Source: Promethearchaeota archaeon | GTDB taxonomy: Archaea > Asgardarchaeota > Thorarchaeia > Thorarchaeales > Thorarchaeaceae | DNA length: 64,000 nt | Assembly (NCBI GenBank): GCA_014728035.1 | Contig: WJMJ01000046.1 | Location: forward strand, 96,001 to 160,000 | Reading direction: 5' to 3' | Shown: positions 53,936 to 60,698 of the stretch, in pieces | How positions within the stretch are numbered: position 1 is the stretch's first letter | How the letters are laid out: every line of letters starts with the position of its first letter | The notes under the pieces: generated by a model | What the model was told of the DNA's origin: nothing | Databases searched by the model: none | Seen by the model: the letters and a program-made list of their open reading frames with translations, nothing else | Made by a program: the position numbers and the translations under genes

Positions 53936-55099
53936 TTAACCCCCAAAAGGATTTCTAGACCGACGCTTTTCAAGTGTTGCATAAGTTAAACCAGATAGCG
54001 CCATTAGTCTATCAATAATTAACTGAGTTTCATTCAAACTTATCTTCGCTCGGGCATCTGCCTCTAAAATAGGAGATGGGATGCCATATTCAGGATGTTG
54101 CCACGAAAGAGGTAATATGGCAGCAAGAGCTTTGTCAATTTTACTTGAAACATTGACTTCATTATCTTTTACCAGTATTTCAACCCGTAGTGGTAAATCA
54201 TCTCTTGCTGTTTTCAGATAGGTTACCCAAATTGAAGACGCCCAATCAGTCAAGTCTTTAGGTACAGAATTAGGAGTTTGAGTAAACTCAACAGAGTATC
54301 TGAATGCAAAAGTTCGTTCAGCTTCCTCTAAAAAGGTGTCAAGTAAATCACAGTCCCTAGAAATTTTCAATAACCACCTATAGTCAATACCATGCATTTT
54401 ATCAAAAACGGAGGGTTTTCGGATGATGTGTGGAAGGACATCACCCAGCATGTTGACAATTCTAGCAGATCTGCTATCTTTGACTATACCAACCAATGTG
54501 GTTTTTTTCTTTGTTGCAGTAGAATATAATTGTCGATATAAGGCTAAAACTTGTTCATATTTCTCATAAACCAATGAGCCAGAAGGAGGACGATCTTTTG
54601 GATGGTAGAAAAGAGACCCATCAATAAGAATCAAATCAGTATGAAACTCTTCAAGGACTGCAAGAGTCACACGTAGTTCTGTGGCAATTCTTTCAAGTGA
54701 CGCTAGCTGATCTAATTCGGTACTTGAAAGTGTTAACATAATGGGACGGACAGTTGGTTCTGGAAAAGCATCAGGATAAAAATCAACTGTTGGGCCTTCG
54801 GACGACTGAAAGCTGAACACAACCGCAACTCCACGAGTTAGAAGTAAATCCATTGAACGGAAACGGCGACGAACTAATCCACCATCAACACCAGCAATTC
54901 GAAGCCCTGAAAGTGGTGTTGGTTGAATGGATTTGATAAAATCAAATTCGTCAGTGCTTTTGGCAAGTAATGGAAATCTGTTTAGTTCAATTTCGCCTTT
55001 TATTTCTCTTAGGACAGAACCAAAACGAGACCTTGTAGATTCGATTCGCTCAATCTCTTCCACAAGTAAAGACAACATTCGATCAAGATTCTTATCCAT
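53936..55099 (-). CDS. nurA: NurA nuclease
   Basis: AGVDGG, E, LIDGSL, GIVKDS, YG.P..ILEAD..AKI. Confidence 0.88.
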   Translation of the reverse strand: MDKNLDRMLSLLVEEIERIESTRSRFGSVLREIKGEIELNRFPLLAKSTDEFDFIKSIQPTPLSGLRIAGVDGGLVRRRFRSMDLLLTRGVAVVFSFQSSEGPTVDFYPDAFPEPTVRPIMLTLSSTELDQLASLERIATELRVTLAVLEEFHTDLILIDGSLFYHPKDRPPSGSLVYEKYEQVLALYRQLYSTATKKKTTLVGIVKDSRSARIVNMLGDVLPHIIRKPSVFDKMHGIDYRWLLKISRDCDLLDTFLEEAERTFAFRYSVEFTQTPNSVPKDLTDWASSIWVTYLKTARDDLPLRVEILVKDNEVNVSSKIDKALAAILPLSWQHPEYGIPSPILEADARAKISLNETQLIIDRLMALSGLTYATLEKRRSRNPFGG

Positions 55100-56804
55100 C
55101 AGTCCTCACACTTCTATATTTCATTGCTGCCCTTATTAGACCCAAGTATAATGGATGTGGACTACCTGGACGAGAGAGAAATTCTGGATGAAATTGCACA
55201 CCAATCCAGAAGGGATGCTTCGGTATCTCAATAGCATTAATGATAGTATCGGATTCATCGAGTGCAGAAACAACTAAACCTTTTTCATGCATTTTACTGA
55301 TATATCGGTCAATTAAATGAAAACGATGCCTAAATCTTTCGAAAGTTTCAGTTGCTCCATAGATGCTATGAAGTTTTGTACCTTCCTTAATAATAACTTT
55401 CTGACCACCCAAACGCATTGTTCCTCCCTTATTTTCAATTATTTTTTGTTCATCCATCAAATCAACAACGGGATAGAGACTGTCATCGTTCACTTCGGTA
55501 GTATGAGCATCTTTCCATTTCATAATCTTCCTTGCAAAAGCAACTGTTCCCAGCTGACCACCATAACAAATTCCAAGAAATGGGATCTTTGAACTCAGTG
55601 TAACCGCCGCGGCACTGATCATTCCCTCAACACCACGAGCTCCAAAACCAGGTGTGAGAAGTACTCCATCAACATCCTTCAAATCTTCTGTCAAGCAAGA
55701 TTCATCACACCGTTCATCAGTTTCAATCCATTTGATTTTTATTTTCACACCACAGGCTGCTCCTGCATGAGAGAGAGCTTCATTGATGCTTTTGTAAGAA
55801 TCACTGAGGAGGGTGTATTTCCCTGGCATTGCAATAGTAATTGTGCCTTTTGTACTTTCAAACGATTCAACAATTTCTGCCCATTTTCTTGTATCAGGTT
55901 CATGATCTGTAAGATTGAAATGGCGTGTGAGAATAGAACCCAATTTCTGTTCTTCAAAGTATAAAGGAAGGCGATAAATCACAGGGATATCAGGATTAGA
56001 AATAACATTATCTTCTGAAACATTACAAAACAAAGCAACTTTAGCTGTAGCTGAAGGAGTTAGTTGTTTCTCTGCACGGCAAACAACTATATCAGGCTGC
56101 AACCCAAGACCTTGTAGTGTACGAACACTATGTTGCGTTGGTTTTGTCTTAAATTCTCCCACGGACTTCATGTATGGAACCAATGTGACATGTACAAATG
56201 CAACATTCTGACGCCCGATTTCAAGTGCCAATTGACGAACTGCCTCAAGGAAAGGCATAGCTTCTATGTCACCGACAGTGCCACCAATTTCTACAAGCAA
56301 TACGTCAGGACGAGGTGTTTTTTCAATTAATTCCCAAATTCGCTGTTTTATTTTATCAGTGATATGAGGTATTATTTGAACGGTTCTGCCTAAAAAACTC
56401 CCTTTCCTTTCACCCAAAATTACCGAGATATAGATTTGCCCCGATGTGATATTATGAGAGGGGTGGGCGTTCATTCCCGTAAATCTTTCATATGTTCCAA
56501 AATCCAAATCTATTTCTGATATTGTAAAATCTAAATCACCTGCAGGTCTGAAGTTCCATGCTTGTTCAGTAACAAAAACTTCACCGTGTTCTATTGGATT
56601 CAATGTGCCAGGGTCAATATTTAGATATGGATCTATTTTCACAATACGTACACTATATCCCCGAAATTGAAAGAGCTTTGCAAGAGATGCAGTTGTCACG
56701 CCTTTACCAATACCAGACAGTACGCCTCCAGTCACAAACACCAAACGAGTTGATTCGGTTTTTTCATTCAATAGCAGCAACACCAGACCAAGATATCTGG
56801 ACAC
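55092..56804 (-). CDS. pyrG: CTP synthase
   Basis: TGGVLSGIGKG, DPYLNIDPGT, KTKPTQHSV, GICYG, ERFRHR, QFHPEF. Confidence 0.96.
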   Translation of the reverse strand: MSRYLGLVLLLLNEKTESTRLVFVTGGVLSGIGKGVTTASLAKLFQFRGYSVRIVKIDPYLNIDPGTLNPIEHGEVFVTEQAWNFRPAGDLDFTISEIDLDFGTYERFTGMNAHPSHNITSGQIYISVILGERKGSFLGRTVQIIPHITDKIKQRIWELIEKTPRPDVLLVEIGGTVGDIEAMPFLEAVRQLALEIGRQNVAFVHVTLVPYMKSVGEFKTKPTQHSVRTLQGLGLQPDIVVCRAEKQLTPSATAKVALFCNVSEDNVISNPDIPVIYRLPLYFEEQKLGSILTRHFNLTDHEPDTRKWAEIVESFESTKGTITIAMPGKYTLLSDSYKSINEALSHAGAACGVKIKIKWIETDERCDESCLTEDLKDVDGVLLTPGFGARGVEGMISAAAVTLSSKIPFLGICYGGQLGTVAFARKIMKWKDAHTTEVNDDSLYPVVDLMDEQKIIENKGGTMRLGGQKVIIKEGTKLHSIYGATETFERFRHRFHLIDRYISKMHEKGLVVSALDESDTIINAIEIPKHPFWIGVQFHPEFLSRPGSPHPLYLGLIRAAMKYRSVRTDG

Positions 56805-56862: not shown

Positions 56863-57450
56863 TCATCCAGTAGCTTGAGCTAAAACACTAGCTCTAAGAG
56901 AGTCTTGGAAAATTAGCTGGAAAGCTTCCATAATCATATTCCCCTCTTTAGCTATACTTTTGAAAATAGGGATCGAATCAGGTAAGCGAAGATAGGATCT
57001 AAATCGAGTCTCATCAATTGCATTTGGTAAATCTTGTTTGTTTAAACAAACAGCAATAGGAAGTGACGTGTCTTCTTCGGAAAGCATCGAAAGTAACTCA
57101 TTCCAGCTTTGCAGGTTCTCTTCCAGAAGATTGTCTTGTGAATCAGCAACGAAGATGATGCCATCCGTTCCAACTAAAACAACCTCTCGAGTAGAACGGT
57201 AGAAATCCTGTCCGGTTGCAGACCAGATATGTGCATTCACCATCCAGCTATTCCCAAGTGGAATTGGAATAGTACCGAAATCACAAAACATGGTTCTACC
57301 AACAGTATTCTCAATTGATGTCAGCCGATCACTGAAATCTAATGCTGAGAATAACCATTGAATGGATGTTGTTTTTCCACTCATGGCCGGTCCAAAGAAC
57401 ACAATTTTCACATTGACTGTTTTATTGCCATAATCTATTATCAAACTCAT
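56863..57450 (-). CDS. MglA-like small GTPase
   Basis: KIVFFGPAMSGKTT, RTMFCDF, TGQ.FY, DGIIFVADSQ, NKQDL, SIA..G. Confidence 0.9.
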   Translation of the reverse strand: MSLIIDYGNKTVNVKIVFFGPAMSGKTTSIQWLFSALDFSDRLTSIENTVGRTMFCDFGTIPIPLGNSWMVNAHIWSATGQDFYRSTREVVLVGTDGIIFVADSQDNLLEENLQSWNELLSMLSEEDTSLPIAVCLNKQDLPNAIDETRFRSYLRLPDSIPIFKSIAKEGNMIMEAFQLIFQDSLRASVLAQATG

Positions 57451-57462
57451 AACCTCCTAATT

Positions 57463-58380
57463 TCATGTACCCCACATGCTATCAACCCAAGCACCAAGCC
57501 CAGATAAGGTGCCATTTTTTACACAGTCTGAAAAATCTTCATGCCACTCAGCTCGAATGAACTGAATCAAATCAGATACAGTGCCACCTTTCCAACCAAT
57601 AGTTTCGAAAAGGTTTCGCTCTGTCAAAGATGTGGAAGTACCAAGTTCTCGTGCAAGACGAATTCTTGAAAGAAGAGTAACAGCTCTTCTTGCAGCATGC
57701 ACATAATTGTTAATTTCTTCTACGAATACATCACGAGTTAATTTTTCAGCTTCATCATCAAGATTTAGAACCACTTTGGTTATATGTTCAGAATTTTCAA
57801 TATCACGTAAAGATTTTCTTAGTAATCTTCTAATTCGTTCAAGAGATTGATTTTTTCGTTCCAAAATTTTTGATACAATATTCTTCTCGACATCCAAAGA
57901 CCTAGCAATAGAACTAATCAATGAAAACGAGAAATCAGAGGGGGACATAATTCTCAAGATTCCACAATTTCCGGATTCGGCTACTTTTTCAGTAATGGAA
58001 CTCAGTGTTTCCGAATTTATTTCCATGCCCAAAGACTTGGAACCAAGAGGAACTGAAATAACCCAGCTTGAAAAGGTGTTAATTCTTTCCAGCGCTAAAC
58101 GAAGATTGGACGAAAGACAACAAACAACAGTACGATTTACTTCATAATTGTGCTTTTCTTCTTCCAAAACGGATACGATATCATTTTCAGTCGTGAAATC
58201 ACGCCAGAAGACTAGTTTATGCCGGTGAGAGCAAAGTGATGATAGGCTCTCTGTGAGATCATCAACCAACTCGATATCTTCACCAACAACTAGAACAGGA
58301 ATTCGAGATAAGATCGTATTCAGAAGAAGGTGAAACTCCGAATTCATGATCTCAATTAGATTCAATATAGAATAAGTCAT
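57463..58380 (-). CDS. Putative DENN-core-like protein
   Basis: LL..IL..IPVLVVG.D..LV......L..L resembles the cDENN opening motif; lies between roadblock and GTPase genes. Confidence 0.5.
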   Translation of the reverse strand: MTYSILNLIEIMNSEFHLLLNTILSRIPVLVVGEDIELVDDLTESLSSLCSHRHKLVFWRDFTTENDIVSVLEEEKHNYEVNRTVVCCLSSNLRLALERINTFSSWVISVPLGSKSLGMEINSETLSSITEKVAESGNCGILRIMSPSDFSFSLISSIARSLDVEKNIVSKILERKNQSLERIRRLLRKSLRDIENSEHITKVVLNLDDEAEKLTRDVFVEEINNYVHAARRAVTLLSRIRLARELGTSTSLTERNLFETIGWKGGTVSDLIQFIRAEWHEDFSDCVKNGTLSGLGAWVDSMWGT

Positions 58381-59324
58381 TTATCGCGCCCCACCATTAA
58401 CAGGCTTTTTCCAGGCCCACCAGAAAGCAATAGATCCTTCAATTCTTCCGGAACAGATGGTTTTGTCAGTGATGCATTCTCCAATAATTGTCTTGACTCC
58501 TCAATGTAATGCTTGAGAAGTAAACGCATTAACCCTAATTTCTGGCTGTCCTTATCAACATAAAGACTGAAGACGCCATTGGGCACTGCATAAATGAAAT
58601 GACGCATATTGTCTGTTTCACAAAGAACTGTTTGGAGAGAACTATTACGAAGAGTTCGGATTACTCGTTCAGAAGCATCATGAAGGGCGAAAGACATGGC
58701 TGCTAAACGGTCATCGGTAAAGCCATCAAGTGAAACTCTAACACCACCACTTAGAGCAAGAAAAACAGTGGAGATATTTGGGATACTATCATGGACCTGA
58801 CGAAGAAGAGACCTTAAACTTAACGCACGCGACCTATCTAATGATACAATAGAACGTTTTAGTGAGTACTGGGTTGTATCAATTTCAGAAACAGAAAATC
58901 CTTGAAGCACTTTCTGGGTTTCATCAGAACTGAATGAACGAAGTGGCGGAAGGTTCCCTTCTAGATGTTGTTTCAAAAGGAATGAAACACGAGACAAATT
59001 ATCTTTCATTTCAATGAACAATGCAGCGAGGTTAACACGTGGTGCAGTCGTAACGGCAAGAAAGTAATTCGAGTCTTTAGGTAAAGATGCTAAGAATACT
59101 TTTGATGTTTCTGATTCCATAAGAAGATATTTGAAATTCCCATGGATTAATCGCGCAACTCCAAATATTGCACATGTGGAGGATGCAACCGCAAAGACCT
59201 CATCCTTACTGAACCACACTCCAGCACTTGCAACAGGTAAGCCATCTTTTTGAATCAGAACTACATTTTCAACGCCAGTTATGTTCTTAATCTTTTGAAG
59301 AGTTTCATTCAACTCGTCGGTCAT
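58377..59324 (-). CDS. Tandem roadblock/LC7 (MglB-like) domain protein
   Basis: Two units: L.KI..I.GV..V.LI.KDGL..AS and L.....IP.I....LA..GG...S..LAAMS.AL. Confidence 0.85.
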   Translation of the reverse strand: MTDELNETLQKIKNITGVENVVLIQKDGLPVASAGVWFSKDEVFAVASSTCAIFGVARLIHGNFKYLLMESETSKVFLASLPKDSNYFLAVTTAPRVNLAALFIEMKDNLSRVSFLLKQHLEGNLPPLRSFSSDETQKVLQGFSVSEIDTTQYSLKRSIVSLDRSRALSLRSLLRQVHDSIPNISTVFLALSGGVRVSLDGFTDDRLAAMSFALHDASERVIRTLRNSSLQTVLCETDNMRHFIYAVPNGVFSLYVDKDSQKLGLMRLLLKHYIEESRQLLENASLTKPSVPEELKDLLLSGGPGKSLLMVGRDK

Positions 59325-59405
59325 TCATTCAGCCTCGAACCGATATGGTCCGTAGTATGATTAAGACTCTCAATATATAATCCCCACACAGATTTGAGAG
59401 GACAA

Positions 59406-60698
59406 TTACATATGAATAAGAGCTGCATCTGGAACTTCTTGAAAAATTTCTCGTGAGGCCTTACCTACCTTTTTCCTAAATGGTTCACGAGTATACACTC
59501 GGATTACGTCAAGGTAAACTTTCATCATTTCTGCTATATTGGAGAGATCTGATAGATTTCTAGTGATTTTTTTACCTTCTATGATTTCGTAAATACTTAT
59601 TTCCATTGGATCCATTTGATGCGGATTATATGGGACAGAAGGAAGTGTAGGAACATCAACAATGACTTCCTCAGGAGGCACATCAGCTGATTCTGCAATC
59701 TCGTCTTGAATGCTCTCTCTAACTCTTTTCTTTGTTAGAAGTTTTGATACAAAACGGTCTTGAGTATGTAGAACTTTCTCAAAGGATGATTTGTATAATT
59801 TTCGGGAGTCAAGCAAGTTAACCATTTTTACAGCCTCTTGAGCATCCTCAGAAATAGAAGAATCAAGATCTCTTATTTGTGAAAAGAGAGACATATCATC
59901 TAACTCCAGAAAGTGATCAGGCTCAGAAAAGCTAGTTAATCCTAATTCACTATCAGCCGCATTCATCAAATGTACTAGCATAACTTCTACACTTCTGACA
60001 GTTTTATGATAATAAACATTTAGAAACATTTCATAACGAGCAACTAAGAATGACTCCAACGCCCCTCTTGCATTTATATCAAATTCAAGAGTACCAGTAT
60101 CAGAAACTTCGAGACTATTGATTAAACGATGGATATCGACGAGTCCGTAATTAACCCCACAATAAAAAGAGTCGCGAATTAGATAGTCCATCTTATCAGC
60201 ATCTACTTGACCAGCAACAATCCCACTTGTGATTATATCATTGGGTTCAATCACACGCCCCCTAACAAGGTGAGATATACGATTCTTTGAAACACCACCA
60301 TCCCCAAGAATATCTCCTACTACACTATTTAGTATAAGCCACTCAGTTACATCTTCATGATTCCAACCTCTATGTTCGATTAAACATTCTTCGAATACAT
60401 GACTAAATGGACCATGGCCTAAATCATGAAGAAGAGCAGCTAATCGGATATCTTGCAAATCGTCTTCATCTAATCCAATCTGTGGCAACAACCGTTCACC
60501 AAGAAGCCCAGCTAGATATAGTGCACCAATACAATGACCAAATCTACTGTGTTCTGCGGTGGGATACACAAAATGGCCTCCAGACAGTTGCCGAACTCGG
60601 CGTAATCGTTGATATGGTTCAGAGTCAATTATTTTCATTTCAATAGGAGTAAGATGAATAAATCCATGTACCGGATCATTAATTTCAATGGTGGTCAT
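59406..60698 (-). CDS. HD-domain dNTP triphosphohydrolase-like protein (SAMHD1/YwfO type)
   Basis: DPVHG, QRLRR..QL, HSRF.H, LLHDLGHGPFSH, DAD.MDYL.RD, R..MF..VYYH. Confidence 0.9.
   Translation of the reverse strand: MTTIEINDPVHGFIHLTPIEMKIIDSEPYQRLRRVRQLSGGHFVYPTAEHSRFGHCIGALYLAGLLGERLLPQIGLDEDDLQDIRLAALLHDLGHGPFSHVFEECLIEHRGWNHEDVTEWLILNSVVGDILGDGGVSKNRISHLVRGRVIEPNDIITSGIVAGQVDADKMDYLIRDSFYCGVNYGLVDIHRLINSLEVSDTGTLEFDINARGALESFLVARYEMFLNVYYHKTVRSVEVMLVHLMNAADSELGLTSFSEPDHFLELDDMSLFSQIRDLDSSISEDAQEAVKMVNLLDSRKLYKSSFEKVLHTQDRFVSKLLTKKRVRESIQDEIAESADVPPEEVIVDVPTLPSVPYNPHQMDPMEISIYEIIEGKKITRNLSDLSNIAEMMKVYLDVIRVYTREPFRKKVGKASREIFQEVPDAALIHM

Follow-up and report, generated by a model that had tools for sequence, protein, structure and literature searches.

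In eukaryotes, Rab, Rag and Arf GTPases are mainly regulated by DENN-family and longin/Roadblock proteins, and three adjacent genes of a Thorarchaeaceae genome (Promethearchaeota archaeon, GenBank assembly GCA_014728035.1) raise the question of what such proteins may do together in an archaeon. These genes encode a tandem Roadblock protein (gene 1), a predicted DENN-fold protein (gene 2) and a small GTPase of the MglA type (gene 3). They lie in a window of 64,000 nucleotides (nt), corresponding to positions 96,001 to 160,000 of the forward strand of contig WJMJ01000046.1, and feature positions (Table 1) are those of the window. Near-identical proteins from elsewhere bear the name Candidatus Thorarchaeota, so that the proteins too indicate an Asgard archaeon. 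The answer that we favour, with moderate confidence, is that the trio forms a self-contained GTPase switch composed of an MglB-like Roadblock chain and a DENN-fold second regulator. [quoted passage not shown]

The window trio displays the same three adjacent and co-directional families as the operon of Liu et al., and nothing of substance differs. A preliminary description of this DNA likewise states that GTPase-X-roadblock loci have been reported in Asgard genomes. MglA groups of Asgard archaea, along with their Roadblock structures and DENN domains, are also mentioned in later work, and our literature search found no bench study of the Roadblock/DENN/MglA module. Our refinements of the published description concern the GTPase, which is of the MglA group-1 type, the Roadblock protein, which has two domains, and the DENN protein, which is predicted to be devoid of a longin domain.

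To what extent the three genes belong together can be judged from a profile survey of 400 Asgard genomes from about 33 families (hereafter, labels such as f1 or f8 denote families, L loci and G genomes) and from the gene order in the 30 best-scoring loci of other Asgard genomes; these genomes are relatives, so that independent events are not what is counted. Of the 400 genomes, 237 match the DENN-fold profile and 234 the tandem-Roadblock profile, and the strong matches (E 1e-16 or better) of both profiles fall in the same 13 families, with, for the DENN-fold and the tandem-Roadblock protein respectively, 83/85 and 85/85 genomes in f1, 101/135 and 99/135 in f22, and 4/4 and 4/4 in f29. About 20 sampled families lack the module, and neither profile has a match in, for example, f8 (0/31), f10 (0/12) and f13 (0/12), the sole discordant family being f11, where borderline DENN-profile matches (E ~1e-4) occur in 5/22 genomes together with no tandem Roadblock. 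Since the module occurs in 13 of the roughly 33 families sampled, the "most" of the published description is generous. The order Roadblock, DENN-fold, GTPase is kept in 28 of the 30 loci, with gaps from -32 to +38 nt, which indicates that the arrangement is not due to chance, and the source genome has a single copy of the DENN-fold gene. The trio is a co-inherited, tightly packed and conserved unit.

This packing is visible in the window, where the three co-directional genes are transcribed in the order Roadblock, DENN-like, GTPase. Both junctions, which read gat aaA TGA ctt between genes 1 and 2 and TGA aattaggaggtt ATG between genes 2 and 3, confirm the three tightly coupled genes of the preliminary description, with their ATGA overlap and 12-bp gap at exact coordinates, and the ATGA overlap is read as translational coupling of genes 1 and 2. 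In dozens of Loki-type f22 assemblies (genera g70 and g71), the contig starts 0.2-0.9 kb upstream of the tandem-Roadblock gene (for example G204:C23:553, G246:C66:474, G220:C32:201 and G229:C2:396), an observation that suggests that a repeat, or some other element that resists assembly, lies immediately upstream of the trio in this lineage.

Which kind of GTPase stands at the center of the unit is indicated by the closest solved relatives of gene 3, namely MglA from T. thermophilus (3t12_A, E 4.6e-31) and from M. xanthus (6hjh_A, E 1.2e-29), followed by Rab7 (E 4.9e-10), the match to Gtr1_RagA (E 4.6e-5) being far weaker than that to MglA. The motifs of gene 3 are GPAMSGKT (P-loop), GRTMFCDF (switch I, with R52 and T53), SATGQ (G3, with Q81), NKQD and SIAK. 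In full, the G3 motif reads W-S-A-T-G-Q with a Ser at the usual GTPase Asp position, and GRTMFCDF aligns to ERTLFFDF of T. thermophilus MglA, with Arg52 at the position of the intrinsic arginine finger. Among 18 orthologues, R52, T53, T79, G80 and Q81 are invariant, and the Asp position is occupied by Ser or Thr in all. The same set of features, i.e., the P-loop, the switch-I Arg-Thr pair, an Asp-less G3 followed by Gly-Gln, and NKxD, is found in the MglA proteins of T. thermophilus and M. xanthus (3t12, 6izw; PMC3199381). Group 1 of the MglA family is defined by a G2 arginine and a G3 without Asp (TVPGQ in bacteria), and groups 2-5 have no G2 arginine and a G3 that reads GTPGQ (Wuichet and Sogaard-Andersen 2014, PMC4316618). 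Coupling to a Roadblock gene, taken as one within four genes, is also found, with the Roadblock gene two genes upstream here and in 28 of the 30 other loci. Further traits of group 1 are a GTP-dependent screw movement of the beta-2 strand and hydrolysis stimulated by MglB. From its sequence, gene 3 is thus best described as an MglA group-1-type GTPase rather than as "Rab-like", which is an addition to the published description and agrees with the earlier proposal of an MglA-type GTPase whose SATGQ G3 is without DxxG. The operon GTPase scores 276 bits against the family profile, and the next two paralogues of the genome about 142 bits. In two Loki-type loci (L037:4988-5647 and L040:13281-13967), a second, Arf-like small GTPase of 219-228 amino acids (aa), which shares about 30% identity with that of the operon, is encoded ~0.5-2.5 kb past the trio GTPase gene on the opposite strand, in convergent orientation.

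Gene 1 matches the Pfam family Robl_LC7 in two stretches (E 8.2e-12, 45.1 bits for a cut-off of 23). An AlphaFold2 model built from 17 syntenic orthologues, with a predicted local distance difference test score (pLDDT) of 75.3 and a predicted template-modelling score (pTM) of 0.72, contains two alpha-beta-beta-alpha-beta-beta-beta-alpha units according to DSSP, namely RD1 (residues ~1-121) and RD2 (~164-281), joined by a linker (122-163) that is of low confidence in the model and carries an invariant PPL. With Foldseek, the model matches the solved Thor Roadblock 7f8m (E 4.6e-7, template-modelling (TM) score by target 0.86, 2.0 Å over 120 columns), and further matches are LAMTOR2 (6b9x_B), Roadblock3 of MK-D1 (9jue) and MglB (3t1s/6izw), with TM scores by target of 0.77-0.86 for 7f8m, 6b9x_B, 9jue and 3t1s. 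Gene 1 therefore comprises two Roadblock domains in a single chain, a fold that it shares with the MglB homodimer and the LAMTOR heterodimers, and the double roadblock protein announced beforehand is borne out by Pfam, topology and Foldseek alike. The two domains are unequally conserved, with 32 columns conserved at 90% or more in RD1 versus 14 in RD2, and the loop between strands 1 and 2 of RD1 holds an invariant Asp27-Gly28-x-Pro30. MglA binds the MglB dimer asymmetrically, with one GTPase per Roadblock pair (PMC3199381, PMC11016934), and the higher conservation of RD1 fits one GTPase on an asymmetric Roadblock pair, as for MglA with the MglB dimer.

What the middle protein is can be read mainly from its predicted structure. 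The AlphaFold2 model of gene 2 (pLDDT 90.7, pTM 0.86) is composed of an alpha/beta domain resembling a core DENN domain (residues ~1-155), followed by a helical d-DENN-like domain (~163-305). In an exhaustive comparison of this model with 48,161 structure chains (VIA-align), the six best chains are DENN proteins throughout (Folliculin-FNIP2, C9orf72-SMCR8 and DENND1/DENND10 structures 6nzd, 3v42, 7o2w, 6lt0, 6ekk and 8p0v; Z 9.7 to 13.2). DENND10 comes first (Z 13.2, 187 aligned residues, 4.5 Å), followed by folliculin (FLCN; Z 12.8 and 12.7, 187 residues at 3.6 Å), C9orf72 (Z 11.0), SMCR8 (Z 10.9) and DENND1A (Z 9.7). These six matches cover both domains of gene 2 (from residue 1 to ~278-286, 182-204 aligned) and start past the longin domains of the targets, at chain residues 157, 345, 202, 704 and 170. 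No N-terminal longin (u-DENN) domain is present in the model, which begins with two short helices and has its strand 1 at residue 29, and we therefore speak of a longin-less DENN-fold protein and not of a full DENN module. Foldseek, the check suggested with the preliminary description, retrieved FLCN with a probability of 0.99 at a weak E of 6e-3, and the ESM Atlas agrees, its neighbours being C9orf72-like, Folliculin_C/SMCR8_C, SPA and DENND11 proteins by features (0.89-0.94) and FAM45B and SMCR8 by shape (TM 0.51-0.53). The DENN-like character first proposed for this 305-aa protein is hence upheld, and its modelled fold is that of a core DENN plus a d-DENN domain without a longin domain.

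At the sequence level, the resemblance to eukaryotic DENN regulators is marginal. The gene 2 family of ~300-aa proteins amounts to 226 clusters in a word-indexed search and to 71 clusters at 50% identity in an exhaustive one, and its named members all belong to Asgard lineages (Thor, Odin, Hod, Baldr, Asgardarchaeia and Promethearchaeota). In an alignment of 36 sequences, R26, P28 and R53 are invariant. Pfam Folliculin_C matches 3 of these 36 relatives weakly (best E 4.8e-4) and is the sole Pfam family matched by more than one of them, a single relative matching Pfam DENN (E 0.093). Over the 400 genomes, Folliculin_C gives matches in 6, with one above the cut-off, which makes it useless for mapping proteins of the gene 2 type; in G129, which is among the 6, the gene matched is the DENN gene of the trio itself (profile positions 4-62). 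Other proteins of ~310-360 aa with weak Folliculin_C matches, one above the cut-off, occur in the trio-less families f8 and f28 (loci L042, at G021:C278:6452-6727, L043 and L045), and may represent the alternative or fused DENN families to which Liu et al. refer. DENN-fold genes are also encountered outside the trio. Adjacent divergent DENN-fold paralogues with no Roadblock or GTPase gene are found at L034:4052-4966/5001-5936 and L003:2-679/682-1521; such pairs recall the DENN-DENN pairing of FLCN/FNIP and C9orf72/SMCR8, and the pair in a Promethearchaeota metagenome-assembled genome adjoins UvrD/PDDEXK genes. In genus g69 (L013:1504-2400 and L014:1501-2397), a DENN-fold gene stands as an orphan, adjoined by neither a Roadblock nor a GTPase gene; in L013, it is flanked by genes for a pyruvate-formate-lyase-like protein and a DUF998-like membrane protein.

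How could these three proteins work together? In the self-contained switch that we favour, the tandem Roadblock protein would be an MglB dimer fused into a single asymmetric chain, able to bind the switch face of one GTP-bound GTPase and to speed hydrolysis by positioning R52 and Q81; as the GTPase would supply its own R52, no external arginine finger would be needed. The DENN-fold protein would dock on the Roadblock platform, rebuilding in trans the eukaryotic longin/Roadblock plus DENN arrangement, and would act as a second regulator, either as a nucleotide exchange factor or as a co-factor or scaffold setting where the switch acts. The preliminary description assigns the role of GTPase-activating protein to the Roadblock chain and that of guanine nucleotide exchange factor to the DENN-fold protein, and both roles are putative.

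Several points weigh against this proposal. The binding and activity of all the Asgard members are predicted only. The G3 motif of gene 3 and its orthologues, Ser/Thr-Ala/Cys-Thr before Gly-Gln, differs from the Thr-Val-Pro (T-V-P-G-Q) of bacterial group-1 MglA, and the packing of RD1 and RD2 as an MglB-like pseudo-dimer is putative, the model having a pTM of 0.72 and a low-confidence linker. The DENN assignment of gene 2 stands mainly on a predicted structure; gene 2 has no match in Pfam (E up to 1) or NCBIfam, including to any family of the DENN clan, and its family profile retrieves no DENN protein among PDB sequences, the matches obtained being spurious helical ones to ferritin (E 0.001). 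Finally, in FLCN, SMCR8 and NPRL2, it is the longin domain that carries the catalytic arginine, whereas the chief function of the DENN domains is mutual pairing (PMC12290439), so that the folliculin analogy alone is no argument for an exchange factor. The result (score 0.02, mark 0.32) obtained when the trio was predicted as a complex, the DENN-fold protein being the partner, counts neither for nor against binding.

Among the characterized systems, the likeness to MglA/MglB extends from the GTPase to the Roadblock gene, which is coupled to it in the genome and whose product has a fold matching MglB. However, MglB is a homodimer, whereas the two Roadblock domains of gene 1 are parts of a single fused chain and differ from one another through divergence, and instead of the RomR/RomX partners of bacterial MglA the trio has a putative DENN-fold third partner. 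With the eukaryotic DENN regulators, the trio has in common a longin/Roadblock-type domain, but this is a Roadblock domain, not of longin topology, and is carried by a separate polypeptide; furthermore, the putative client GTPase is of the MglA type while the eukaryotic regulators serve Rag, Arf or Rab, and no heterodimer partner equivalent to those of FLCN-FNIP2 or C9orf72-SMCR8, which pair through their DENN domains, is encoded in the trio operon. As to Ragulator-Rag, in both cases a Roadblock platform would hold a small GTPase, and LAMTOR2 belongs to the structures that gene 1 matches best. Nevertheless, Rag GTPases form heterodimers and have a C-terminal Roadblock domain, whereas gene 3 is a 195-aa single-domain GTPase without one, and a lipidated wrapper comparable to LAMTOR1 has no counterpart in the trio. 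The analogy with Ragulator/FLCN/Rag first put forward is therefore a loose one, since the place of Rag is taken by a single-domain MglA.

A different role for the DENN-fold protein, which we hold to be rather unlikely, is that of a non-catalytic adaptor or effector tying the MglA/Roadblock switch to a target, most attractively a type-IV-pilus-like machine. The proposed target consists of a TFB paralogue and two ATPases, one of the T2SSE/CpaF type and the other HerA/VirB4-like and of 1234 aa, all found ~23 kb from the trio in the source genome (L036). This proposal draws on the analogy with the control of type IV pili by MglA in Myxococcus and Bdellovibrio, and on the DENN domains of FLCN/FNIP2 and C9orf72/SMCR8, which are mainly pairing and scaffold modules (PMC12290439). 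It also draws on a conserved neighbourhood, for which L036 was compared with L037-L041 and the ATPase linkage was followed in 23 Thor genomes, in ten f19, f21 and f22 genomes hand-picked for their long contigs, and in one genome each of f14 and f29; these are kin and not independent. The closest pilus-type ATPase orthologue lies on the trio contig at 5-28 kb in the 23 Thor genomes compared, at 5-24 kb in 10/10 of the chosen long-contig genomes, at 5 kb in f14 (G104) and at 10 kb in f29 (G304), and the TFB paralogue also occurs in the trio neighbourhoods of f14, f21 and f22. The trio-ATPase linkage across f1, f14, f19, f21, f22 and f29 is thus real, and the neighbourhood of the trio with the pilus-type ATPase, the TFB paralogue and Orc1/Cdc6 is phylum-wide, which is a second addition to the published description. 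G277 has a complete trio and, on another contig, a second tandem-Roadblock gene (C5:601017-602924 and C7:160777-161769), and each of the two is accompanied by a separate pilus-type ATPase copy at a distance of 13-27 kb, the second trio copy being 27 kb from the second ATPase.

The content of this neighbourhood nevertheless speaks against a dedicated cluster. It also holds Orc1/Cdc6, a class-V aminotransferase in two of the lineages compared (those of the source and f29 genomes) and FtsZ, which is located between trio and ATPase in a single lineage, so that the linkage may correspond to an old origin-proximal synteny block and not to a functional cluster. Moreover, the pilus-type ATPase family is also found in families without the trio (29/31 genomes in f8, 20/22 in f11 and 6/6 in f16), and trio and ATPase are located on different contigs in G005 and G007. 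Pilus control is consequently kept as a minority reading, beside the self-contained switch, which we continue to prefer.

Far less probable is that gene 2 is a degenerate P-loop ATPase of the PilT/VirB11/RecA-like kind, unrelated to DENN proteins. Such ATPases do match its first domain with Z 7 to 9.2, and T2SSE-type ATPases appear in its Atlas structure lists (TM 0.39). Yet none exceeds Z 9.2 (three are tied at this value), and nearly all are confined to the first domain, only a few (GspE, PilB and FlaI) extending to residue ~225-229, whereas the DENN proteins span both domains with higher Z. In addition, gene 2 has no Walker A, the strand-1 loop being VLVVGEDIELVDD and GK[ST] not being conserved across the 36 homologues, and the lone Pfam family matched by several relatives is Folliculin_C. 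The core DENN domain approximates a minimal P-loop fold without the nucleotide-binding residues (PMC3521125), and matches to ATPases are therefore expected for a DENN protein; the degenerate-ATPase identity was rejected on these grounds. Finally, that the three genes are mere neighbours without a common function, as could be suggested by DENN-fold genes that occur singly or in DENN-DENN pairs and have neither a Roadblock nor a GTPase gene beside them (L013, L014, L034 and L003), is hardly credible in view of an order and spacing constant over at least six family-level lineages, of a matching presence and absence of the trio families across the 400 genomes and of overlapping stop and start codons.

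The immediate surroundings of the trio are summarized in Table 1. An 81-nt intergenic gap separates gene 1 from the stop of the upstream HD-domain gene and contains TTATATAT, a possible archaeal TATA box that could serve as promoter of the trio. The HD-domain and CTP synthase genes flank the trio in the same genus only (L028) and in 0/29 other loci, and a functional tie of the trio to nucleotide-pool enzymes was rejected for this reason. The CTP synthase itself is called with a GTG start and has an odd hydrophobic N-terminal extension.

Table 1. Features of the trio locus and of its surroundings (window positions in nt, except for the last row)
Feature	Position	Strand	Remarks
Gene 1, tandem Roadblock/LC7 protein	58377-59324	minus	315 aa; open reading frame list
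Gene 2, longin-less DENN-fold protein (predicted)	57463-58380	minus	305 aa; open reading frame list
Gene 3, MglA-type (group-1-like) small GTPase	56863-57450	minus	195 aa; open reading frame list
ATGA stop/start overlap of genes 1 and 2, 4 nt	58377-58380	minus	direct sequence reading
12-nt spacer aattaggaggtt with GGAGG ribosome-binding motif, before the GTPase ATG	57451-57462	minus	direct sequence reading
TATA-box-like element TTATATAT	59373-59380	minus	49-56 nt upstream from the ATG of gene 1; direct sequence reading
CTP synthase, flanking gene	55092-56804	minus	
HD plus HD_assoc_2 (dNTPase-like) protein, flanking gene	59406-60698	minus	
TFB paralogue, T2SSE/CpaF-type ATPase and HerA/VirB4-like ATPase	L036:934-10187 (G000 contig C9:175934-185187)		~16-26 kb past the window end

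The operon itself has been known since 2020/21, and what is new here is the MglA-type assignment of the GTPase, as judged from its motifs and relatives, together with the phylum-wide neighbourhood. The paper that described the operon, reportedly published in Nature in 2021, had already recognised the evolutionary value of the module. By keeping the MglA-type GTPase, the Roadblock pair and the DENN fold on three co-inherited but separate genes, the trio bears on the origin of the eukaryotic GTPase regulators. A more daring proposal, which we deem improbable, is that the split pair of tandem Roadblock and longin-less DENN proteins with its MglA GTPase would represent the ancestral state, prior to fusion, from which the longin-DENN regulators of eukaryotes arose, and that in extant Asgard cells the switch would control the placement or assembly of the type-IV-pilus-like machine found 5-28 kb from it across the phylum. 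If true, DENN proteins would originally have regulated a surface-appendage polarity switch rather than membrane traffic. As a simple, soluble and probably reconstitutable system, the trio may bear on both the original job of the DENN fold and the rise of the fused eukaryotic regulators.

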